DNA of 64,000 nucleotides. It comes from a virus. Taxonomy: Duplodnaviria > Heunggongvirae > Uroviricota > Caudoviricetes. Each line of letters begins with the position of its first letter. Position 1 is the stretch's first letter. A program made the position numbers and the translations under genes. Location: positions 28,188 to 92,187 of IMG/VR virus record IMGVR_UViG_3300023118_000008. One strand, given 5' to 3'. The notes beneath the pieces were generated by a model. It had not been told where the DNA came from. It worked only from the letters and a program-made list of their open reading frames with translations, and did no database searches. Positions 2,882 to 53,312 of the stretch are shown here, piece after piece.

Positions 2882-3718
2882 ATGATTGTACAGAAAGATG
2901 GAGAACAGTTTATAGTGACCACTACTAACAAAGCAATTGATGTTATTCTTTATTTCCCGAAATTAGATACTAATGGAAGTAGATTAGATTCGGCTATTCA
3001 GAAGATAGAAAGTGAAGGCTCGATGAGAGATAAAGGCCTAGAATTAATTCAGAAAGCAAGAGAAGTAGCTTTTCCAAATTGGGGAAATATTGAGATACTA
3101 GATGAGCAAAAACTAAAGAATTCTGACTCAACTCGCCATAAAAGTCAAAGTGGGGAAGCTCATCCGAAAATTTTAGGTGAGTGTGTGGTTTTTAATAGTA
3201 ATCCAATTAACTGTACTTGGTTTCAAACTTTAACTGGCGAGGCTTTTAGAGAAGATAAACTTTCAGAAGCGTATCAAAAGGAACAAAGGGAACTCAATAA
3301 AGGTTTGGCAGAGAAAGAAGTATTTAAGAAATTAGAAATCCGACCCGAAGATATATGGAACGCAACTAAAAAAGAGGGTATAAAAAAATCTATTGACAGT
3401 TATGAGTCCTTTAAAGGGAATGATAAATTCAAACCTTTTACGGGTAAGAAAGAAACGGAAGGTAAATCAGACTACTCTGAAATCAATTTAGGTATTTTAG
3501 ATTTGATGGCTGAAAGATTTCAGGCTAACAAAGGAAAGTACGAGCATGGAAACAGTAAAAAGCCTTTAGATAAACAGCAGATCCTGTGGGCATTGTTCAG
3601 ACACGTAAAGAAAATGGTTCAACCTATTGAAGATGATGAAGAGAGCTTTAAAGAACATTTAGCGGCGACATTAACAAACTGCTCAATTATACTAGACCAA
3701 TTAGAACTTGAAAAATAA
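2882..3718 (+). CDS. hypothetical protein
   Basis: 278-aa ORF whose start abuts the preceding stop. Confidence 0.5.
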   Translation: MIVQKDGEQFIVTTTNKAIDVILYFPKLDTNGSRLDSAIQKIESEGSMRDKGLELIQKAREVAFPNWGNIEILDEQKLKNSDSTRHKSQSGEAHPKILGECVVFNSNPINCTWFQTLTGEAFREDKLSEAYQKEQRELNKGLAEKEVFKKLEIRPEDIWNATKKEGIKKSIDSYESFKGNDKFKPFTGKKETEGKSDYSEINLGILDLMAERFQANKGKYEHGNSKKPLDKQQILWALFRHVKKMVQPIEDDEESFKEHLAATLTNCSIILDQLELEK

Positions 3719-11861: not shown

Positions 11862-11891
11862 AAAATCGGCGGGGAAGAAAACTAAAAATAA
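11861..11891 (+). promoter_or_regulatory. Recurrent motif copy (aaaaatCGGCGGggaagaaaactaaaaataa) immediately 5' of the ATG at 11892
   Basis: Motif family. Confidence 0.5.
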
Positions 11892-18229: not shown

Positions 18230-18478
18230 ATGAAAATACATTTAACAACAGCAATAGATAAGTACAAAAATCAGTTTGGATATAAACTTCACTTTGTGCC
18301 AGAATTAGGAACGATGGTTAAAACTTTACGTAATGACAGTAAAAAACCAAAAGAAATCCCCTTTGATGAATTAGAAGTACAATCTGTTACGCACTATCCT
18401 GATGGGGTAGTCATATCTCTACATTATTCTGAATTACAAAGAAAACAAGCGGAGGCGTATAAATTAGACTTATTTTAA
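18230..18478 (+). CDS. hypothetical protein
   Basis: ORF whose stop codon (18476-18478) lies inside the transposon target-site duplication. Confidence 0.45.
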   Translation: MKIHLTTAIDKYKNQFGYKLHFVPELGTMVKTLRNDSKKPKEIPFDELEVQSVTHYPDGVVISLHYSELQRKQAEAYKLDLF

Positions 18479-18482
18479 TCTT

Positions 18483-18507
18483 GGTAAGTATACCCACTTT
18501 ACACAAG
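18483..18507. repeat. Left terminal inverted repeat of the transposon (25 bp)
   Basis: Exact reverse complement of 23482-23506. Confidence 0.85.
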
Positions 18508-18524
18508 CTTAAATCAAAAACTTA

Positions 18525-18552
18525 AAGACACTTTTAATAGGTGTCTTTTTTA
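18525..18552 (+). terminator. Hairpin plus T-run (AGACAC-TTTTAATAG-GTGTC-TTTTTT) just inside the left terminal repeat
   Basis: Perfect 6-bp stem followed by T6. Confidence 0.5.
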
Positions 18553-18638
18553 ATTTACGGAAATTATGGAAAAAGACGATAAAGATTTAAAATTGATAAC
18601 ATCAGTGTTTATATTAGCCTTCACCGCCATCATGCTTT

Positions 18639-19082
18639 TTATACCTGTTTTTTTATTTGTTTTATATATTGGTATACCACTATTAGACAAGATAGAGCTG
18701 CCGCCGTTGCCCAAAAAATAAAAACACCTCGAAGATATTTAGTGAAACTTACACTGTAATAATAGCCAATACACATGCTGATGCTTTTGATAATCAAAGA
18801 GACTATTAGATAAATCTCTACTCTGATAAGAAGGAGTTGAGTTACAAATCTTGATTTGAGTAGTAATTTTTCAAGCAATAATAAAAGAATAAAACTTAGT
18901 ATGAAATACATAAGTGATAAGCAAAACAGCAAGGAAACTAACAAAATAAATGACTCTTTTAACAATGAAGGCTTAAAGAGGTAAAAAGAAACAACCCAAA
19001 AACAAGCTATAAAAGCAATATAAAGTATGTTTTTAAAAGTTTCTTTACTTAACTTCTCAACAAATTTATCTACCATGTTCAT
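18639..19082 (-). CDS. transposon cargo: polytopic membrane protein (about 4 TM)
   Basis: 147-aa ORF with several long hydrophobic stretches. Confidence 0.5.
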   Translation of the reverse strand: MNMVDKFVEKLSKETFKNILYIAFIACFWVVSFYLFKPSLLKESFILLVSLLFCLSLMYFILSFILLLLLEKLLLKSRFVTQLLLIRVEIYLIVSLIIKSISMCIGYYYSVSFTKYLRGVFIFWATAAALSCLIVVYQYIKQIKKQV

Positions 19083-19107
19083 CTATCTAAATTTTACAAT
19101 AGCCTGA

Positions 19108-19578
19108 CTATTTGATATTAAGGTCTTTATATAAAATATCAATCACTTTATTAACTTCAATTGCCATATCAATATACAATGATTTATCTAGTTTAAGATC
19201 CTCTTGTACCATAGTCAGCTGAAAACTGCACATACTATGAATTTTGCTCACTAAGTCCATAATTGATTGTCTGCTCTTTTTATTTAAGTAAATACTGTTA
19301 CGCACAGACGCATTGTTTAATAGACTAACTGTTTCAACTGAACCTTTTGCATCGGGATTGCTTTCAAGAAACTCACTATCATATACATTTGACTCTAATT
19401 CAAATTTATAGTCAGTAAGTATCTTATAGATTTCTTGAAATGCTGGAATCTTGTGTTGATAAAGCAATTCTATCCTTTTGGAACGATTGACAAGAGCGTT
19501 AGTTACAATCCCTACTATTATACCACTGACTATTGGAGATAATACTGCTAGCCATTTAAAAAGTTCTGTGTTATCCAT
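19108..19578 (-). CDS. transposon cargo: N-terminally anchored membrane protein
   Basis: TM segment LAVLSPIVSGIIVGIVTNALV followed by a soluble domain. Confidence 0.5.
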   Translation of the reverse strand: MDNTELFKWLAVLSPIVSGIIVGIVTNALVNRSKRIELLYQHKIPAFQEIYKILTDYKFELESNVYDSEFLESNPDAKGSVETVSLLNNASVRNSIYLNKKSRQSIMDLVSKIHSMCSFQLTMVQEDLKLDKSLYIDMAIEVNKVIDILYKDLNIK

Positions 19579-19904
19579 TATCTAGTGAACGAATTTTTAT
19601 AGTCGTTGAATATGCCCTCAATCTGTTCCTTGATATACTCCAACTCCTCATTATCAGGATTTCTGCTTATGATATAGCCTTTATACAATTCGTCAGCCTG
19701 TTTAAATTTCCTTTCACTATTATCAAGACGAATTTGTAACTTTTCATGCATCTCTCTTGCGCTGATCGCCCTACTGATTCCAGAGGATTCAAAAGGCTTT
19801 AAGACCTCCCTTACGGTGTTTAAAAATTGTTCTTGCTCAGTCATATTTGAATAATTTAGAGGGGAATTTACAAAATAAAAAACTAATACTAACAATAAAG
19901 CCAC
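19578..19904 (-). CDS. transposon cargo: hypothetical protein (likely starts at the internal MTEQEQF)
   Basis: ORF on the minus strand within the cargo operon. Confidence 0.4.
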   Translation of the reverse strand: MALLLVLVFYFVNSPLNYSNMTEQEQFLNTVREVLKPFESSGISRAISAREMHEKLQIRLDNSERKFKQADELYKGYIISRNPDNEELEYIKEQIEGIFNDYKNSFTR

Positions 19905-19926
19905 TCATTTAAGTGGCTTTTTTAAT
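19897..19926. terminator. Hairpin AAGCCACT-CATTTA-AGTGGCTT followed by TTTTTT (T-run on the plus strand); lies between two minus-strand cargo genes
   Basis: Perfect 8-bp stem; the T-run is cleaner on the plus strand; possibly bidirectional. Confidence 0.45.
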
Positions 19927-20026
19927 TCTTAATATTATGGATAATGACGAAGATTTCCTAGATTTTTTAGACAAGCTGGAAATTTTGGTAAAAACTTTCC
20001 CGAATGACCAATCTGAAATTTTAGCT

Positions 20027-20275
20027 TTAATCGTGCAATACAGAAGAATGTTGAACCAAGATGATAAGACCTAAGAAGCTTTCTTTCGCCGATTGAGTAT
20101 TATTCTCAATATTATAGAGGTATTCTTTGGACTTTCCCAACGATTCACCCTTAAAATCAATTTTGGCAATCAGTTCAGATAATTCTTGAAATACTTTCGG
20201 TTTATGCTCTGGTATACTATTAGCAAATAAATATGCAAGTTCTACTATATGTTTTATGGTGGTATATTTGTTCAT
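20027..20275 (-). CDS. transposon cargo: hypothetical protein
   Basis: ORF on the minus strand. Confidence 0.4.
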   Translation of the reverse strand: MNKYTTIKHIVELAYLFANSIPEHKPKVFQELSELIAKIDFKGESLGKSKEYLYNIENNTQSAKESFLGLIILVQHSSVLHD

Positions 20276-20308
20276 ATTTTCAATTTTAAAGGTTATAAAT
20301 ATAGAAAT

Positions 20309-20596
20309 TTAAGGAATAAGAAAATCTTTAGCATTTGAGAAATTATTAATCAGAGCGTCATTACAACACTTTTTGATAATTTCCAAAACTTTTTTATGCG
20401 GGATATTATGACCTTGTGCTAGAAGCGAGCTTGCAGAATTATGAGATTTGTAAACATTCATAATTGCAAACCTCACATTTGACTCCGCAAGGAATTTCGA
20501 GCTTGGATCTTGTAGCATTATAGCTATTTCCTTGTCAATCGCTTTATCGACAGACTTTTTAAGTTTTTCTTCGGGGGTTGAGAATAGTCCAAACAT
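20309..20596 (-). CDS. transposon cargo: hypothetical protein
   Basis: ORF on the minus strand. Confidence 0.4.
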   Translation of the reverse strand: MFGLFSTPEEKLKKSVDKAIDKEIAIMLQDPSSKFLAESNVRFAIMNVYKSHNSASSLLAQGHNIPHKKVLEIIKKCCNDALINNFSNAKDFLIP

Positions 20597-20608
20597 TGTT
20601 TCAAGTTT

Positions 20609-21118
20609 TTAGGTTAGCCTTACTTTAAATTTTCTAAAGAAGATAAAGATTGAAGTTATGATTACTGTAAACAGAATTACGATTAGAAAGTCTTGCTTTG
20701 TTGCTGAAATGTAATATTCCAACTTTTTGGAGTATCCAAAATCATAGTGAAGTTGCGCCATATTCATAGGAGGATTTACAACCCTGACCTGATTACCGAA
20801 AGGAGTATTAAAGTCAATATAAGCAATTGGAGTATCTCCACTAACTTGCTCTGTAAATGATAATGTTTTTGGCTTGTAGGATGCCATAAAAGAAAACTTA
20901 CCTGTATGCTCAATTGCCAAGACTAAAAACCAACCAATAAAAAGAGATTTTAAAACATACTCCAACAGATAGCTTGGAATATTTACATCTTTTTTATCAG
21001 CAGTTGGGGCACTATTGCTTATTGCAGGATTTGGGACGCTTACTTTTATAGGCTTGTCATTAAAGGCAACCGCATAAAATACGATGCACATTGCTATAAA
21101 AATCAATGCTATTACCAT
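20609..21118 (-). CDS. transposon cargo: membrane protein (3 TM)
   Basis: Hydrophobic N-terminus, internal TM and C-terminal TM. Confidence 0.5.
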   Translation of the reverse strand: MVIALIFIAMCIVFYAVAFNDKPIKVSVPNPAISNSAPTADKKDVNIPSYLLEYVLKSLFIGWFLVLAIEHTGKFSFMASYKPKTLSFTEQVSGDTPIAYIDFNTPFGNQVRVVNPPMNMAQLHYDFGYSKKLEYYISATKQDFLIVILFTVIITSIFIFFRKFKVRLT

Positions 21119-21522
21119 AGGACTTAGAATTAAGCCACTATCAAACCCGAACAGTGAAGATTAGGTACAAAAAAGCGTGGGTTTGTAACTAAATCCTATC
21201 TATTAGAGGTTCTGGTAAACCTTACGACATAGAATAAGTACACCCACGCCTAAGCGTGAGCGAAAACCTATTCATTTTGCGTCGTTTTTTAAAAATTTAC
21301 CAGATTCCTAATTGACAAAATGAAAGCTAACGCTTATATTTTCGATATGTAAAGCACAAATATTATAAAATTTTGAGCAGAAAAGCAAGCGTTTGATTAA
21401 TATAAAATTTACACTTTTGGAAGCTAAAAAACTAAGCAGTATATTTGTAGTCAGCTGTTTAGGTTATTTCCTAATTAATATTTAGCATTTAATTACACTT
21501 AATTTTTGTAATTGGTGTAAAA

Positions 21523-22527
21523 TTGTTATATTTGAAAAAGAAAAACCACAAAGCTATGTTTAATAAAGACTTTAATTCGATTTTGGAAATTGCAAGGGAG
21601 TTTGCAACGGAAGAAAAATGTATAGCACATCTTGAAGAGCTATATTGGAATAACGAGCCACAAAGCCCTTTCAGCGAGGGAAGCAAAGTTTATAGATGTA
21701 AAAACGGTAAATATAAATGCAAGACTTCGGGAAAGTATTTTACAGTAAAGACAGGTTCGATGTTCGATAATACTAAAATCGAGCTTCCGAAGTGGTTTAT
21801 GGCTATTTGGATTATCACTTCAAATAAAAAGGGAGTAAGTTCCGTACAGCTTGCAAGAGATTTGCAGATAAGCCAAAAGTCGGCTTGGTTTATGACAATG
21901 AGAATCAGAAAATGCTTTGGTATTGAAAACGATACTGACGAGCAGTTTGAGGGAATTTGCGAAGCCGACGAAAGCTTTTTTGGTGGCAAGAACAAAAACC
22001 GCCATAAAGACAAAAAAGTTCCAATGTCGCAAGGACGTTCTTTTAAAGACAAAACACCTGCAATCGGGATCTTGCAAAGGGGAGAATCTGAAATCATAGA
22101 TGGCAAAAAAGTAATCAAATCTCATAGCAAGGTTAAGGTTATCGTTGGAGATAACACAAGAAGAGAAACAATCCAGCCATTTATCAAAAAAGTCCTAGTT
22201 AAAGACAGTGTATTGATTTCTGATGAATGGCACGGTTATCGAGGTTTGGACAGTATGTACGACCATCACGTTGTAGACCACGGAAAGAAGCAGTATGTTG
22301 ATTTTGACAATCCTGAAATACACTCAAATTCAATGGAAGGATTTTGGGGAATCATAAAGCGTTCTTATAATGGAATTCATAATTGGTGGAGCAAAAAACA
22401 CATGCAGAACTACCTAGATGAAAATGTATACCGCTTTAACCTGAGAGGCGAATCAAACTCTTACAGATTCAATACAGTAATCGCCAATTCTAAAATAAGA
22501 ACTAAATACAGAGAGTTGACAGCTTAA
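21523..22527 (+). CDS. IS1595-family (ISXO2-like) transposase
   Basis: N-terminal transposase zinc-ribbon (C..C...CKNGKYKCKTSG...), then LPKWFMAIWIITSNKKGVSSVQLARDLQISQKSAWFMTMRIR, then the C-terminal DDE_Tnp_IS1595 signature HSNSMEGFWGIIKRSYNGIHNWWSKKHMQNYLDENVYRFNLR. Confidence 0.85.
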   Translation: MLYLKKKNHKAMFNKDFNSILEIAREFATEEKCIAHLEELYWNNEPQSPFSEGSKVYRCKNGKYKCKTSGKYFTVKTGSMFDNTKIELPKWFMAIWIITSNKKGVSSVQLARDLQISQKSAWFMTMRIRKCFGIENDTDEQFEGICEADESFFGGKNKNRHKDKKVPMSQGRSFKDKTPAIGILQRGESEIIDGKKVIKSHSKVKVIVGDNTRRETIQPFIKKVLVKDSVLISDEWHGYRGLDSMYDHHVVDHGKKQYVDFDNPEIHSNSMEGFWGIIKRSYNGIHNWWSKKHMQNYLDENVYRFNLRGESNSYRFNTVIANSKIRTKYRELTA

Positions 22528-22558
22528 TTTACTAATTTTACAAACTTAAATGAAATGA

Positions 22559-22834
22559 ATGATTAAGATCCTGAAAAAAGAGAAGCTCCTGCTCGATGGA
22601 AATATCAGCAAGACGCAATTTGAGAATGAATGGTATTTTAACCTTGAAGATATAGCTTCCTATTTGGAAGAGGATTTATCCGAGGTTGAGAGCCTAGACC
22701 TCCCTCTATTGATTGAGGGCAAGCGGGAAACTAAACCAACCGCTACATTTGAGAATATAGAAAAAGGACGGAAAAAAGAAGAACTGTCAGACTTTAATAA
22801 GAAGCTTTTAAAAGCGAGATTTTTTAAGAAGTAA
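22559..22834 (+). CDS. hypothetical protein within the transposon
   Basis: ORF downstream of the transposase. Confidence 0.35.
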   Translation: MIKILKKEKLLLDGNISKTQFENEWYFNLEDIASYLEEDLSEVESLDLPLLIEGKRETKPTATFENIEKGRKKEELSDFNKKLLKARFFKK

Positions 22835-22862
22835 AATAGAGCAATGGTGGAACACTGCTCTA

Positions 22863-23113
22863 AGTATCGTTCTTGCTACTATTGTTCACAAGAGTTACAG
22901 TGATGGCATTCTACTTCTTCAACAGGAATAGTAAAGGGATGTCCTTGCGGAGCAATCTCTTTCCTACCGTTTCTAAAACGAGCCTGACGAAAAATCCACT
23001 TGTAACAAACGCCATCGAAAAGGTTGTAAAAGTGATTCATATCGGTTGACTAAAGTTCTGTCCATTACTAAAGTCTATCCAAAATTCAACAGTTGTACAA
23101 CAAGAACGATACT
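22863..23113. repeat. Nested 251-bp unit bounded by perfect 13-bp inverted repeats (AGTATCGTTCTTG / CAAGAACGATACT); encodes a 53-codon Cys-rich ORF on the minus strand
   Basis: Inverted repeats at 22863-22875 and 23101-23113; interior is relatively GC-rich. Confidence 0.45.
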
Positions 23114-23170
23114 ATAAAAATAGTAAATTTTCGGATACAAAAAGCCCCTAACTCAAAGGGGCTTAATTAT

Positions 23171-23359
23171 TTATGAGACTTTTTGAATCTTTTCTAAAAC
23201 TTCATCAAAAGAGAGTTCTGTATTAATGGTACCATTGACAGTTTTGATTGTGGTAGATATGGAAGTATTTTCTGTATTTGTATGCACTTCTACAATATAT
23301 TTAACATTGATGGAGTGCTTTCTTTCATATTCATCAACAATTATAATTGAACCTTTCAT
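23171..23359 (-). CDS. hypothetical small protein within the transposon
   Basis: 62-aa ORF. Confidence 0.3.
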   Translation of the reverse strand: MKGSIIIVDEYERKHSINVKYIVEVHTNTENTSISTTIKTVNGTINTELSFDEVLEKIQKVS

Positions 23360-23443
23360 AACTTTATTGCTTTAAATTAGTTTGAAAAGTACAAAAAATT
23401 AAAAGAATCCAAAACAAATAATATTAACCCAATACCTTAACTT

Positions 23444-23481
23444 TACTTCGCGGGAAAAAGAACTAGAAACAGTTCAAAAAT
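23444..23481 (+). promoter_or_regulatory. Recurrent motif copy (cttCGCGGGaaaaagaactagaaacagttcaaaaatc) inside the transposon, abutting the right terminal repeat and facing outward
   Basis: Motif family; the same 100-bp unit occurs inverted at 39057-39160. Confidence 0.5.
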
Positions 23482-23506
23482 CTTGTGTAAAGTGGGTATA
23501 CTTACC
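23482..23506. repeat. Right terminal inverted repeat of the transposon
   Basis: cttgtgtaaagtgggtatacttacc. Confidence 0.85.
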
Positions 23507-23518
23507 TTAATCTTTTCC

Positions 23519-23580
23519 CGCCACTTTAAGCAGGCAGTCCCGAAATAATAAGGGGCGAGGTTCGATTCCTTGAGTGGCAC
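23519..23580 (+). ncRNA. 62-nt tRNA-like element: 7-bp acceptor-like stem plus canonical T-arm (CGAGG-TTCGATT-CCTTG), no recognisable D or anticodon arm
   Basis: 5' CGCCACT/GCCACTT pairs with 3' GAGTGGC(A). GGTTCGATTCC T-loop. 30-nt central region with a possible GTCCC/GGGGC stem. Starts 4 bp after the right target-site duplication. Confidence 0.4.
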
Positions 23581-30961: not shown

Positions 30962-31480
30962 ATGAAAAAACTATTATTTTTAGCTTTATTAGCTACAGCA
31001 CTAGGAAATGCACAGACTGTTTTAGACTTATCAGGAATGACCTCCAATAGAATTCTAGGAAGTTCTTGTGGGGGAGAATTAGAACGTTTCAAAACCACAG
31101 GAGACTTGAATCTTAATGGATTTACTTTAACCCTACAGAATGCGACTTTAGAAGTCATAGGGAATGTAAACGGTTCTGGCTCAATCTTTTATTGCGGAAA
31201 TTCTGTATTATGCTCAAGACAATCTACTCAGAATAATCCACAGATTCAAGCAGGATTAAGTAGAAACTGTCAGAGTTTAGGTATCAGAGAGTTTAAGAAG
31301 ATTAGGTATGAGTACAGAAACTATCTATTAACTGTTCCTGACGCTAAAAGTATTCAAATTTATGACCTAAAAGGAAGGCTGGTCAAATCTTTTTTAGGCA
31401 CGGAAATAAACTTGGAAGACTTAAAAACAGCAGTTTATTTGATTAAAACTGATTTAGGAACTATTAAGCTATTGAGATAA
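30962..31480 (+). CDS. secreted protein with T9SS (Por) C-terminal sorting domain
   Basis: N-terminal signal peptide. C-terminal SIQIYDLKGRLVKSF...LKTAVYLIKTDLGTIKLLR matches the Por_Secre_tail pattern. Confidence 0.6.
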   Translation: MKKLLFLALLATALGNAQTVLDLSGMTSNRILGSSCGGELERFKTTGDLNLNGFTLTLQNATLEVIGNVNGSGSIFYCGNSVLCSRQSTQNNPQIQAGLSRNCQSLGIREFKKIRYEYRNYLLTVPDAKSIQIYDLKGRLVKSFLGTEINLEDLKTAVYLIKTDLGTIKLLR

Positions 31481-31531
31481 GAGTAAGTCGAAAATCTTTA
31501 AAAGAGTAGACATAAAAAGAAAACAACAAAA

Positions 31532-32535: not shown

Positions 32536-32606
32536 AGTCTTGTAGTTCAATGGTAGAATGATCCTGATTAGGGGAGGGAATCCTAGTTCGAGTCTGGGCG
32601 AGACGC
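32536..32606 (+). tRNA. tRNA candidate with canonical D-arm (TA-GTTC-AATGGTA-GAAT) and T-arm (CCTAG-TTCGAGT-CTGGG); anticodon arm pairs poorly (possibly Leu-TAG or Ile-GAT)
   Basis: Manual fold: acceptor AGTCTTG/CGAGACG pairs 6 of 7. Confidence 0.5.
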
Positions 32607-37134: not shown

Positions 37135-38283
37135 ATGCCCGAAGAAAAAGAAATTATATTAGACGATAGGATACAAAAAGTAGGGGTAGTAGCCAAAGAA
37201 GCTTTCATTGAATTAAAAAAGTTACAAAAAGGTGATAAGTTAATTGTTAAATCTGGGGAGGACTTTATAGACTCTCATATAGGTGGATTACTTCCAGGTG
37301 ATTGCATCTTGCTGGCTGGATCTCCTTCAAGCGGAAAGTCTGAATCTCTTTACAGGATGATTGATAAGATGATGGATATAAATATAAATCCAGCCGCAAA
37401 AGAATTTGTGAGCTTAGAGTTTAGCTTTGAAATGAGAATGCTCAATAAATTATTACGTTCGGGAAATAGATTGCTCTCAAAGAAAAAGTCAGAAATTTTA
37501 TTCACCTTATTTGATGAAGAAGAAGCAAAAAAAATGAAGGAGTACTATGATAATCTAAATGATGATAGGCGTTTTGTAGTTCAAGCTCCTGTAACACCAG
37601 AAGATTTTTATAAGATGACACGGGATTTTTGTATTCTAAATTCATCGAAGCAGTGTATTATACTTTCAGTAGATCATATATTACTTTACATAGGTACAGA
37701 TAAACAGTTGGTTTTAGAAAAAGTAAGTGAATACTTAAACCTTTTGAAGCTAGAGTTCTCTAATGTGTACTTCGCAGTACTTTCACAATTGAACAGATCG
37801 GCCTTATCTGTTCTGAAGGATAAGTCTAATGACATGATTCCTAATAATGGCCATATCTATGGGAGTAGTTTTATGGAACAATTTGCCTCGTATATTATTA
37901 TTATCACAAACCCCTATAAACAGGCAATTACTAGTTATCTCAAATTCGGTAAGGATAGGTATGAATACTTATCTGAATTCTTTTGTGACGAAGATAAGAA
38001 TGGTAAAATATCTTTTGAAACCGCTGGAAATTTATTTTATTTTGTAACGAAAGCCCGTGAAACAGATAATTCCTCAAAAAATTTATTCATTCGAAAAATG
38101 GATTTATCAGAGGAAGAATTAAAAAGAATGAAAAAAGATGTGGAGGACAATAAAAATGAAATTTCTACAAAAACAATCTCCCTACCAGTATTTGAAAACT
38201 TTAACTCAACAGCTCCACTACCAACAGTTAAACCTTTTGATGCTTTTGGTCAGAGTTTTGAGAAAGATAAAGAACCGTTTTAA
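37135..38283 (+). CDS. DnaB-like replicative helicase (C-terminal RecA-like domain)
   Basis: IDSHIGGLLPGDCILLAGSPSSGKSE (Walker A, matching the DnaB LDELTGGLQPGDLIIVAARPSMGKT region), Walker B IILSVDHIL, and the H4 motif AVLSQLNRS. Confidence 0.75.
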   Translation: MPEEKEIILDDRIQKVGVVAKEAFIELKKLQKGDKLIVKSGEDFIDSHIGGLLPGDCILLAGSPSSGKSESLYRMIDKMMDININPAAKEFVSLEFSFEMRMLNKLLRSGNRLLSKKKSEILFTLFDEEEAKKMKEYYDNLNDDRRFVVQAPVTPEDFYKMTRDFCILNSSKQCIILSVDHILLYIGTDKQLVLEKVSEYLNLLKLEFSNVYFAVLSQLNRSALSVLKDKSNDMIPNNGHIYGSSFMEQFASYIIIITNPYKQAITSYLKFGKDRYEYLSEFFCDEDKNGKISFETAGNLFYFVTKARETDNSSKNLFIRKMDLSEEELKRMKKDVEDNKNEISTKTISLPVFENFNSTAPLPTVKPFDAFGQSFEKDKEPF

Positions 38284-38347
38284 TTTTAACAGTTTTTATT
38301 TGTTTATTACCTTTTTTCGCCCGATATTTACAGAAAAATAAATAATT

Positions 38348-38545
38348 ATGGAAAACTCAGAATTTGGAAATGGCTTAATAGTAGGTTGGATTATTAGCTG
38401 GATTTTACTTGGAATGTTAGTTGCTATATTTTTTGAAAATCCCATAAGAATTGAAACAAAAGAATTACTTCAACCCGAAAAAGTACTTACAACAGACGGA
38501 AAGAAAGTTGATACAATTTATGTTTATAAAGTAAATCAAAAATAA
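38348..38545 (+). CDS. small membrane protein
   Basis: TM segment GLIVGWIISWILLGMLVAIFF; preceded by a variant motif at 38311-38347. Confidence 0.4.
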   Translation: MENSEFGNGLIVGWIISWILLGMLVAIFFENPIRIETKELLQPEKVLTTDGKKVDTIYVYKVNQK

Positions 38546-38546
38546 T

Positions 38547-39005
38547 TTGACAGCTGAAGATATAGAAAAAGCCTTGGAAAGACGTTATAAGGATGATTTG
38601 TATTTGATATCCAATGTATACTTCTTTAAGAATGAAACTGATTTCTTAGTTATTAGAAAGAGCGGTCTTATGATTGGGTGTGAGATTAAATGTTCCCTGA
38701 GTGATTTCAAAGCAGACTTTAAGAAGTCTAGGCATCAGGGACTTTTAGACGGCTCTGAAGATTTGGAAAACTATTTTTATTACGTCTGTCCTGAAAATCT
38801 CATACCTTTAGAATTGATTCCTAATTATGCGGGACTTCTGTATGTAACAGAATCAGGATGGATTAGAGAAATTAAGAAAGCTCCTAAACTGCACTCTAAA
38901 AAGCATGAGTATAAAGAAAACCTGTTTAATAAAATGTATTTCGGTTATAGAGAAGCTAGAAATTTAAAAGACAGTCCTGAGTTTTCGGCGCGAAAAGAAA
39001 CTTAA
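38547..39005 (+). CDS. hypothetical protein
   Basis: ORF whose start abuts the preceding stop. Confidence 0.45.
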   Translation: MTAEDIEKALERRYKDDLYLISNVYFFKNETDFLVIRKSGLMIGCEIKCSLSDFKADFKKSRHQGLLDGSEDLENYFYYVCPENLIPLELIPNYAGLLYVTESGWIREIKKAPKLHSKKHEYKENLFNKMYFGYREARNLKDSPEFSARKET

Positions 39006-39010
39006 AACAA
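38982..39010 (+). promoter_or_regulatory. Recurrent motif copy (ttttCGGCGCGaaaagaaacttaaaacaa)
   Basis: Motif family; ancestral promoter candidate for the gene at 39348, now separated from it by the MITE. Confidence 0.5.
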
Positions 39011-39056
39011 ATTAAAAATCACTCTAATCTAATATATAGTTACCAAAATAAATTTA

Positions 39057-39332
39057 GGTAAGTATACCCACTTTACACAAGATTTTAAAACTGTTTTTTT
39101 AGTTCTTTTTCCCGCGAAATAAAGTTAGGGTATTGGGTTAATATTATTTTCTGTTCATAACTTGCCTCTATTGAAAACCAATTTATAATAGTCTTTGACT
39201 ATATTTGTTATCTAATCAAAACTTTAAAAATTATGAGTGCAAGCCTAGAAAAAGCTATTGAGCTGTTAACATCGGAAATTTATTTAATGAGGTGGCTTAA
39301 TTTAATGTCGGTGTAAAGTGGGTATACTTACC
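39057..39332. mobile_element. 276-bp MITE-like non-autonomous derivative of the 18483-23506 transposon; 25-bp terminal repeats (left perfect, right 22 of 25) and 8-bp target-site duplication TAAATTTA
   Basis: Left repeat 39057-39081 is identical to the transposon's left repeat. Right repeat at 39308-39332. Direct repeat taaattta at 39049-39056 and 39333-39340. The first about 100 bp equal the reverse complement of 23405-23506. Confidence 0.8.
39089..39124 (-). promoter_or_regulatory. Recurrent motif copy inside the MITE, facing outward (leftward)
   Basis: Reverse complement ctttatttcgcgggaaaaagaactaaaaaaacagtt. Confidence 0.45.
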
Positions 39333-39347
39333 TAAATTTAAAGGGAT

Positions 39348-39701
39348 ATGAAAAATTTCATACAGTACTTAGAAGATACAGGTTACAAGCCTTATAGAAA
39401 GTTTAAAGACGGTAGTTTAAAACTGACAATTAAAAATCAATTTTCAACTTCTGTGGAGGGTGCTTTATGCGACTTTTGGATAAAAAATGAAGATTATCAA
39501 AACCCTATTGTTTGGGGACTAAGTGAAAAAGGAAAACCCCCAACTTTAATATGTCCAAGACCACAAATCTCTTATACAAAGGAAAATACTTATCTTATAG
39601 GGGCTTTCGACGACTCTATGAATATATGTCTGCAAAAGGAAGATCCAGAGGATATTTATAAAGCCCTCTACAATAAATCTATAGTTTTCACCTACAAATA
39701 A
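39348..39701 (+). CDS. hypothetical protein
   Basis: ORF immediately downstream of the MITE. Confidence 0.45.
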   Translation: MKNFIQYLEDTGYKPYRKFKDGSLKLTIKNQFSTSVEGALCDFWIKNEDYQNPIVWGLSEKGKPPTLICPRPQISYTKENTYLIGAFDDSMNICLQKEDPEDIYKALYNKSIVFTYK

Positions 39702-39706
39702 TAAGC

Positions 39707-39958
39707 ATGAGAGAAATCCCATTAGAAGAACCAATAGGAAATTTCATTATTAAAAATGCAGAAGGAGTTACTTGTGAAGACGGTCAGTACTATCATTACT
39801 CAGAAGTCTGTAAACTTTTAAGGCTACAAAAAGAAAATATTAAGGAACTACTAAAAACACAAAGAGAAAACTGTTATGTTGCAATTTATAATGAAACCCC
39901 ACTCAATAAAGAAATTGCTTCACTCTGTATAACTGCGCCTGAACCTCCCATAAAATAA
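39707..39958 (+). CDS. hypothetical protein
   Basis: ORF on the coding strand. Confidence 0.4.
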   Translation: MREIPLEEPIGNFIIKNAEGVTCEDGQYYHYSEVCKLLRLQKENIKELLKTQRENCYVAIYNETPLNKEIASLCITAPEPPIK

Positions 39959-39961
39959 TAA

Positions 39962-40006
39962 TCCCCTACTTGAGCCTTAATTGGTTTAGGTAGGGGAATT
40001 TTCTTG
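39962..40006. terminator. Bidirectional terminator hairpin (TCCCCTAC ... GTAGGGGA, 8-bp stem, 20-nt loop) followed by a T-rich tract, between the convergent gene blocks
   Basis: Perfect 8-bp stem at 39962-39969 and 39990-39997. Confidence 0.55.
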
Positions 40007-40010
40007 TTTA

Positions 40011-40424
40011 CTATTTTAGATTTTTAGTTAGAAACTCTTTCATAACTTTTACAGCCTTATTTAAACTTCTAGGATTATCATAAATACCTGCAAAATTATC
40101 CATAGCGTCTTGATTCTTTATGGTCACTAATTGGTTTGAGAAAAACCCTGTTCTGAAGAATCTTGAATCACTCTCACATAGATTTAAAGAATCTTCTGTT
40201 GTAGATAATGGTAATGCAAGAGAGAATTCCTTAAGTACTTTTATCAGAACATACGGTCTCTTCTTAGTGGTTGTAAAGCATTCTCTTACTATAACATCTC
40301 CTTTGCGGAGTTTTACTGGACGCTTAGTTTCAATAGAAGTTATTGAATTGATTAAGTGCTTAACCATAGCACCTGAATGTGCTTCATTCTTCACAGTTGC
40401 TAAAACTTGTTCTTTACTTGGCAT
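40011..40424 (-). CDS. hypothetical protein
   Basis: ORF on the minus strand. Confidence 0.45.
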   Translation of the reverse strand: MPSKEQVLATVKNEAHSGAMVKHLINSITSIETKRPVKLRKGDVIVRECFTTTKKRPYVLIKVLKEFSLALPLSTTEDSLNLCESDSRFFRTGFFSNQLVTIKNQDAMDNFAGIYDNPRSLNKAVKVMKEFLTKNLK

Positions 40425-40551
40425 AATTGATTGTTTTAAAATTATTAATAGTCAAAGATAATAATAAATTCGGGAATAAAAACCTAAAACAATGTTAAAT
40501 AAAAAATCCCCAAACATTTCTGAGTGGGGAGGTATTGATTGTAATCTACTT

Positions 40552-53117: not shown

Positions 53118-53312
53118 TTAAATTTTCTTCCCGCAAATATTGCAAATCTCAGCTTCTTCTACGGAACCAATCCTCCAAGAATAGTTTCCTATGTGGGTTT
53201 CCTCGTGTTTGCAGATTTCTCTCAGCTGTTCTAACCTTTCTTGTGAATTTTTTATTGTTTTATAAAGGTTTTCACATTCTTCTTTTATTTTCATTGTTTT
53301 AATATTCGTCAA
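53118..53312 (-). CDS. small zinc-ribbon protein
   Basis: C..H...CNICGKKI. Confidence 0.35.
   Translation of the reverse strand: MTNIKTMKIKEECENLYKTIKNSQERLEQLREICKHEETHIGNYSWRIGSVEEAEICNICGKKI

Follow-up and report, generated by a model that had tools for sequence, protein, structure and literature searches.

An N-terminal zinc-ribbon domain is found in all groups of the IS1595 family of insertion sequences except IS1016. Cargo-carrying "transporter IS" groups, namely ISSod11, ISNwi1 and ISNha5, were reportedly distinguished by Siguier and colleagues in 2009. Where PMC8101967, citing Siguier et al. 2009, treats the IS1595 family, it lists 8-bp target-site duplications and an N-terminal zinc finger among its features, and the eukaryotic Merlin relatives of the family carry a terminal 5′-GG (PMC8101967). 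Miniature elements of viruses (vMITEs) have been surveyed and were detected in approximately 0.2% of the viruses covered (PMC11602168, Nucleic Acids Res 2024), and shared MITEs have tied some viral sequences to Flavobacterium hosts (PMC11602168). Insertion sequences are rare in phages according to Leclercq & Cordaux 2011, as that work is cited in PMC11602168. A protein search across 50,697 phage records presented here recovers IS1595-type transposases in only three, all of them short unannotated fragments.

The locus described here lies in a large uncultured Flavobacterium phage, represented by a 144-kb contig, of which we analysed a stretch of 64,000 nucleotides (the window). It contains a 276-bp transposase-less element at 39057-39332, upstream of a phage gene, and a putative autonomous partner, a cargo-carrying IS1595-family element of 5,024 bp at 18483-23506 (+) that is delimited by inverted repeats and a target-site duplication. 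We consider it very probable that the 276-bp element belongs to a Flavobacterium IS1595-family lineage, as a non-autonomous miniature member present in a single copy, and that a DDE transposase of this lineage inserted it. The phage itself encodes a 530-aa protein that shares 49% identity with the A1-like DNA-transfer protein known from Flavobacterium elemo phages, and the neighbours of the miniature element include a DnaB-like helicase, a polynucleotide kinase-phosphatase and an RNA ligase. Elsewhere in the window, a tRNA-His at 2257-2328 is confirmed by both ARAGORN and Rfam, while ARAGORN alone predicts a tRNA-Leu(tag) at 32536-32606 (+), with no Rfam tRNA report at the gathering threshold. 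With 40 bits (E 7e-8), an Rfam DUF805b RNA motif between two phage ORFs at 31478-31512 (+) exceeds its gathering threshold.

The ends of the miniature element are sharply defined. The 25-mer GGTAAGTATACCCACTTTACACAAG occurs in the window without mismatch at 39057-39081 (+), where it forms the left terminal inverted repeat, and at both ends of the 5-kb transposon, 18483-18507 (+) and 23482-23506 (-). A fourth copy with three mismatches, matching at 22 of 25 positions and with the inner bases CACCGA, forms the right terminal inverted repeat at 39308-39332 (-). None of these four copies is expected by chance, as judged from 100 shuffles of the window. The outer 22 nt of the two arms are perfectly complementary, and GGTAAGTATACCCACTTTACAC with its 5′-GG terminus stands at both ends of the element. 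Immediately outside lie two copies of the 8-mer TAAATTTA, read directly from the sequence at 39049-39056 and 39333-39340, which form the target-site duplication. Because this flanking 8-mer is itself palindromic, the inverted repeat extends to 30 nt (39049-39078 and 39311-39340, 100% identity). An identical flanking 8-mer would arise by chance with a probability of about 4e-5 at the composition of the window, and of about 2e-3 at 95% A+T. The coordinates and counts that a first, sequence-only reading had given for the repeats and the duplication are all borne out by the 25-mer scan and by direct reading.

Between these ends, the right-type subterminal region at 39082-39149 (-) together with the adjoining repeat forms 93 nt that match the reverse complement of 23416-23506. 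It is followed by a 158-bp interior at 39150-39307 that contains one TAnnTTTG box and for which no similar sequence turned up in the window, among 103 fetched loci or, by exact scans with interior 24-29-mers, in IMG/VR. Beyond the shared 93 nt and the 22-nt end repeat, no part of the element has a counterpart in the window. As the first reading had noted, there is no transposase; nor is there cargo, and the sole ORF within the element encodes 27 aa (39233-39316, +). No Rfam family was detected in it. The element thus combines the features by which MITEs are recognized, namely small size, absence of a transposase, inverted repeats, a duplication, A+T-rich composition and an intergenic position, here between a stop codon at 39005 and an ATG at 39348.

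MITEs are also multi-copy families, and on this point the label chosen in the sequence-only reading is not supported. No second copy of the 276-bp element was found in the window, nor by exact scans with the repeat of the genomes of 185,579 species (one genome each), of JGI metagenomes or of IMG/VR, and the element is accordingly described here as a single-copy miniature derivative. The absence of other copies weighs little as evidence, because the nearest transposase is only 80% identical and the donor host appears to be unsampled. Like the vMITEs of PMC11602168, the element is small, non-coding, bounded by inverted repeats and a duplication, intergenic in a phage, and has ends in common with genomes of the host genus. 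It differs from them in two respects: vMITEs are defined by copies conserved between cells and viruses, whereas no other copy is found here, and this element is accompanied in the same phage genome by a full-length partner whose transposase appears intact.

The 5-kb partner has inverted repeats that are identical over 25 nt and match at 27 of 28 positions overall, and it is flanked by the 8-bp duplication TTAATCTT at 18475-18482 and 23507-23514. Its transposase gene at 21556-22527 (+) encodes 323 aa from the ATG, or 334 aa if translation starts at an upstream TTG (21523). The protein matches DDE_Tnp_IS1595 (PF12762) with 123.8 bits and an E-value of 7.8e-36 against a cut-off of 27, whereas its match to Zn_ribbon_IS1595 (PF12760; 22.6 bits, E 1e-4) falls under the curated cut-off of 25.4. 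In an alignment with eight relatives, C22 is the only invariant cysteine of the N-terminal region, and all 102 family-invariant columns are kept in the phage protein, including the ADES, SDEW and HSNSMEG blocks. The phage transposase therefore looks intact at the sequence level. Its closest relative, from Flavobacterium chungangense, is 80% identical. With the ORF boundaries used, neither the transposase nor the gene to the right of the 5-kb element has a record in the exact look-up.

In its DDE_Tnp_IS1595 transposase, and possibly in a zinc-ribbon-like N-terminal region, the partner resembles IS1595-family insertion sequences, and both window elements share with that family 8-bp duplications, short inverted repeats and 5′-GG termini. 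The 276-bp element departs from it in having neither transposase nor cargo. The 5-kb element also carries at least six passenger ORFs, two of which apparently encode membrane proteins, and in this it resembles the transporter IS of the family, as does L007, an element of 4,936 bp in F. chungangense that encodes a transposase, has the identical 22-mer at its ends and likewise contains passenger ORFs. Unlike the known IS1595 elements, however, the phage copy has passenger ORFs that match no Pfam, PHROG or PADLOC family, and its transposase is no closer than 80% to any relative. A defence or anti-defence role for this cargo was considered and rejected, there being no PADLOC, PHROG or Pfam match. 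A 91-aa ORF directly follows the transposase gene at 22559-22834 (+) and is also present in the F. chungangense copy (2954-3229, -). It has no family match and may serve this transposon lineage as an accessory gene.

Evidence that such elements enter this phage lineage comes from a related phage in another sample (ERR14374054). A 9.5-kb Logan contig (L098) encodes a protein identical to the 82-aa product of window positions 18230-18478, and its sequence is 88-98% identical to the window flanks of the 5-kb element. At 2363-2420, in place of the 5-kb element of the window, its sequence is ...gacttattttaactttttcccgccac...; the empty junction of that element is given as ...GACTTATTTTAATCTTTTCCCGCCAC.... 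When the element and one copy of its duplication are removed from the window, the remaining sequence has the same length as that of the relative, and two positions differ. This precise empty site in a related phage indicates that the IS1595-type family inserts into this phage lineage.

Five nucleotides from the right duplication of the 5-kb element, at 23520-23578 (+), the sequence can be folded into a tRNA-like cloverleaf, in which the acceptor stem has 7 bp, the T-arm is canonical, the anticodon-like loop has 10 nt and the D arm is reduced. ARAGORN makes no call here, and the best Rfam match, to the tRNA-like mascRNA, is not significant (18 bits, E 0.17). The half of the structure that includes the T-arm is not shared by the related phage contig.

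The terminal repeat also occurs in the presumed host genus. When further copies were sought in host genomes, the exact 22-mer was found at 12 genome loci, 11 of them in Flavobacterium and one in a Flavobacteriaceae genome, and at six metagenome loci. An 8-bp A+T-rich duplication flanks all eight of the host or metagenome copies for which both ends were recovered, and ten duplications of the repeat family have a mean A+T content of 95%. The repeat is thus a transposon end rather than a widespread regulatory site: in Flavobacterium genomes and metagenomes it marks the limits of elements that have 8-bp duplications.

Several of these elements lack a transposase. Four derivatives, of 1,167 bp (L006, 5579-6745), 1,015 bp (L010, 3536-4550), 1,729 bp (L106, 324-2052) and 1,695 bp (L107, 185-1879), resemble the phage element in carrying the same 22-nt repeats and 8-bp A+T-rich duplications without a transposase. 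They differ from it in being 4-6 times larger and in having ORFs of 123-148 aa, with small ORFs noted in L006 and L010. Both a left-type and a right-type end can be recognized in L006 and L106, and only a right-type end in L010, L107 and the phage element. This transposon family, then, readily produces non-autonomous members.

The architecture of the two end types suggests what the transposase recognizes. Across ten right-type ends from host genomes and metagenomes, the repeat is followed by a conserved block, TTTYYAGTTTTTT..GCGG, whereas left-type ends have a hairpin, then a T-run and then a short ORF, so that the two types have only the 22-nt repeat in common. Cargo regions differ completely between copies of the family. 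Elements with transposases that have diverged to 75-80% identity still have the identical repeat. Because it is constant across diverged transposases and is the sole feature common to both end types, the 22-nt repeat is probably all that the transposase recognizes. The small element has two perfect copies and should then be a substrate.

In the favoured explanation, the lineage's DDE transposase would have recognized the two 22-nt terminal repeats of the small element and inserted it between genes of a large Flavobacterium phage, at the A+T-rich 8-mer TAAATTTA, duplicating the target. The acting enzyme may have been the transposase of the phage 5-kb element or a host-encoded relative, and it could act again. 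Mobilization in trans by the phage transposase, as put forward in the sequence-only reading, is plausible in that the enzyme looks intact and the repeats match. Such mobilization, the choice of enzyme, whether the element was small on arrival or became so in the phage, and any effect on neighbouring genes are reasoned here from sequence.

An orthologous empty site for the miniature element, predicted as ...ATATAGTTACCAAAATAAATTTAAAGGGATATGAAAAATTTC..., was sought through the flanking proteins and none was found, because the 117-aa gene downstream occurs in this phage only. A DNA search of the phage collection with positions 38000-40500 returned no match, the relatives being too distant for DNA comparison. 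IMG/VR loci for the 152-aa protein encoded upstream are at most 55% identical, the contigs of relatives at 85% and 77% have different downstream genes, and an exact look-up of four neighbouring proteins returned only this phage's own assemblies.

Within the proposed origin, the element need not have arrived in its present form. A full-size member of the family, carrying cargo and either possessing or lacking a transposase, may instead have inserted at 39049-39056 and lost its interior inside the phage, never having moved as a small element, with shrinkage favoured by the limits of phage packaging. This is a variant of the favoured explanation, since it involves the same family and the same insertion chemistry and differs only in history, and we regard it as quite possible, if slightly disfavoured. 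The element is single-copy in all collections searched, as such a remnant would be, and an unrelated 158-bp interior is to be expected when cargo differs completely between copies. The hybrid ends of the element, CACAAG on the left and CACCGA on the right, also fit a parent other than the resident 5-kb copy. The sequence-only reading had seen in the pair of elements a sign of recent transposition inside the phage; that claim is not supported here: decay in situ and direct arrival from a host genome would each fit equally well.

A closer relationship, in which the resident 5-kb element gave rise to the small one by internal deletion and its own transposase recently moved the product within the phage, is very unlikely. 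It would account for the left repeat being identical over 25 nt and for the presence of an intact-looking transposase in cis. The left end of the small element is of the right type, and BLAST aligns 39057-39149 with the reverse complement of 23416-23506 at 92.5% identity, which is far closer than any host copy comes; in host copies, the match to the small element is confined to the repeat and at most about 30 nt next to it. The same alignment, however, contains five mismatches and one 2-nt indel, all within 68 subterminal nt, and a shared end that is 7.5% diverged argues against a recent parent-offspring relation in this genome. Both ends of the resident copy read CACAAG, whereas the right repeat of the small element has CACCGA at its inner bases, as in host copies. 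Nothing in 18483-23506 corresponds to the 158-bp interior or to the right subterminal region.

Beyond the repeat, the right end of the small element aligns locally with left-type ends no better than shuffled sequence does. A MAFFT alignment had hinted at half of a hairpin there, and the idea of a degenerate left-type end was rejected on the local alignment scores. Taken together, the comparisons make the small element look like a cousin of the resident 5-kb copy rather than its direct deletion product. The earlier description of a derivative of the same transposon therefore stands for the repeats and the type of duplication, and is weaker for the remainder: the shared end covers only 93 bp at 92.5% identity instead of about 100 bp reaching to 23405, the match stopping at 23416, the right end is of the host type and the interior is unrelated.

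The assembly itself was also considered as a source of the structure. A 144,324-bp ENA metagenome contig, assembled at k=141, contains the window at 100% identity and spans the 30-nt stretch common to the miniature element and the right end of the 5-kb element. In independent Logan contigs from run SRR7965148, one contig contains the left junction and ends at 39085, and another starts at 39057 and spans the whole miniature element and its right flank. These k=31 contigs break only at the 30-nt stretch common to 39057-39086 and 23477-23506, which is a repeat-induced assembly break and no evidence of polymorphism. The miniature element is not an assembly artefact. It is extremely improbable that no mobile element is present at all and that the structure is a chance or regulatory palindrome, or a chimera joining host transposon ends to phage DNA: the palindromic, A+T-rich flanking 8-mer does make an identical second copy less improbable and the Logan contigs do break at the repeat, but chance is expected to supply none of the 25-mer matches, many Flavobacterium genomes contain duplication-flanked elements that end in the repeat, the two assemblies between them cover the shared stretch and both junctions, and each window element has its own matching 8-bp duplication, which a mis-join would scramble.

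Upstream of the element lies a 3′-truncated MmcB-like gene (PF06319) at 38547-39005 (+), which encodes 152 aa, compared with 187-198 aa in relatives. In comparison with the MmcB-like gene of one relative, the stop codon results from a 2-nt indel, and DNA homology extends beyond this indel as far as about 39035. Truncation through an adjacent deletion caused by the element was considered and rejected, both copies of the duplication being intact. Downstream, the ATG of an ORFan gene at 39348-39701 (+) lies 7 nt past the right duplication. Its 117-aa product matches only itself among 5.8 billion proteins and has no IMG/VR relative.

The sequence-only reading had placed the element between a promoter-like motif and the gene that it serves, and this arrangement is not upheld. 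The homologue of the upstream motif copy at 38982-39010 in the full-length MmcB-like genes of relatives is coding, so that this copy is decayed coding sequence within the frameshifted 3′ end of the truncated gene. The element has a copy of its own, in that the reverse complement of its block at 39091-39119 (TTTYYAGTTTTTT..GCGG) is the same GC-clamp/A-tract motif. It faces left, outward from the element, antisense to the truncated MmcB-like gene and away from the gene at 39348. The motif inside the element is the subterminal block that right-type ends of the family, mostly from Flavobacterium genomes, have in common.

The motif itself (TTTCGCGGAAAAAGAATTAAAAACA-like) is a general feature of the phage. 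Its density per 10 kb is 6.9 in this phage and 7.7 in loci of related phages, whereas host loci have 1.8, an approximately 4-fold enrichment over the host. A copy in one or the other orientation precedes many start codons by 0-40 nt. Examples are at 11867, 14471, 15093, 15831 and 16173 (+) and at 53134, 54026 and 54829 (-).

Transcription could also pass through the element. No terminator-like site was found in it in the + direction, so that read-through is possible. In a transcript across the element, the ends are predicted to form a 30-bp stem (-81.6 kcal/mol, z = -5.1), the 3′ arm of which ends 7 nt before the ATG at 39348. Two candidate promoters within the element were examined and set aside: a sigma-70-like site, TTGCCT-16-TATAAT (39162-39189), belongs to a class whose counts equal the expectation from shuffled sequence, and a Bacteroidetes-type TAnnTTTG box at 39200-39207 (+) is within chance, at about one per kb per strand.

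Insertion of the miniature element is a rare event of a kind known already and involves no new mechanism. What is uncommon is the presence, in one phage genome, of an apparently intact autonomous partner and its cognate miniature element. A bolder reading, which we consider unlikely, is that the phage, possibly virulent, could be a working habitat for these elements, in which the IS1595 element and its miniature relative are active, the right-end block restarts genes and the phage ferries the elements. If this were true, insertions would be tolerated since the outward-facing block, which resembles the GC-clamp/A-tract signal, could restart downstream phage genes. The pair of phages with and without the 5-kb insertion allows one to ask whether transposons move in phages, whether they are shuttled between hosts and how they are tolerated in packed operons. 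The shared repeat, in turn, provides an independent assignment of the uncultured 144-kb phage to a Flavobacterium host.
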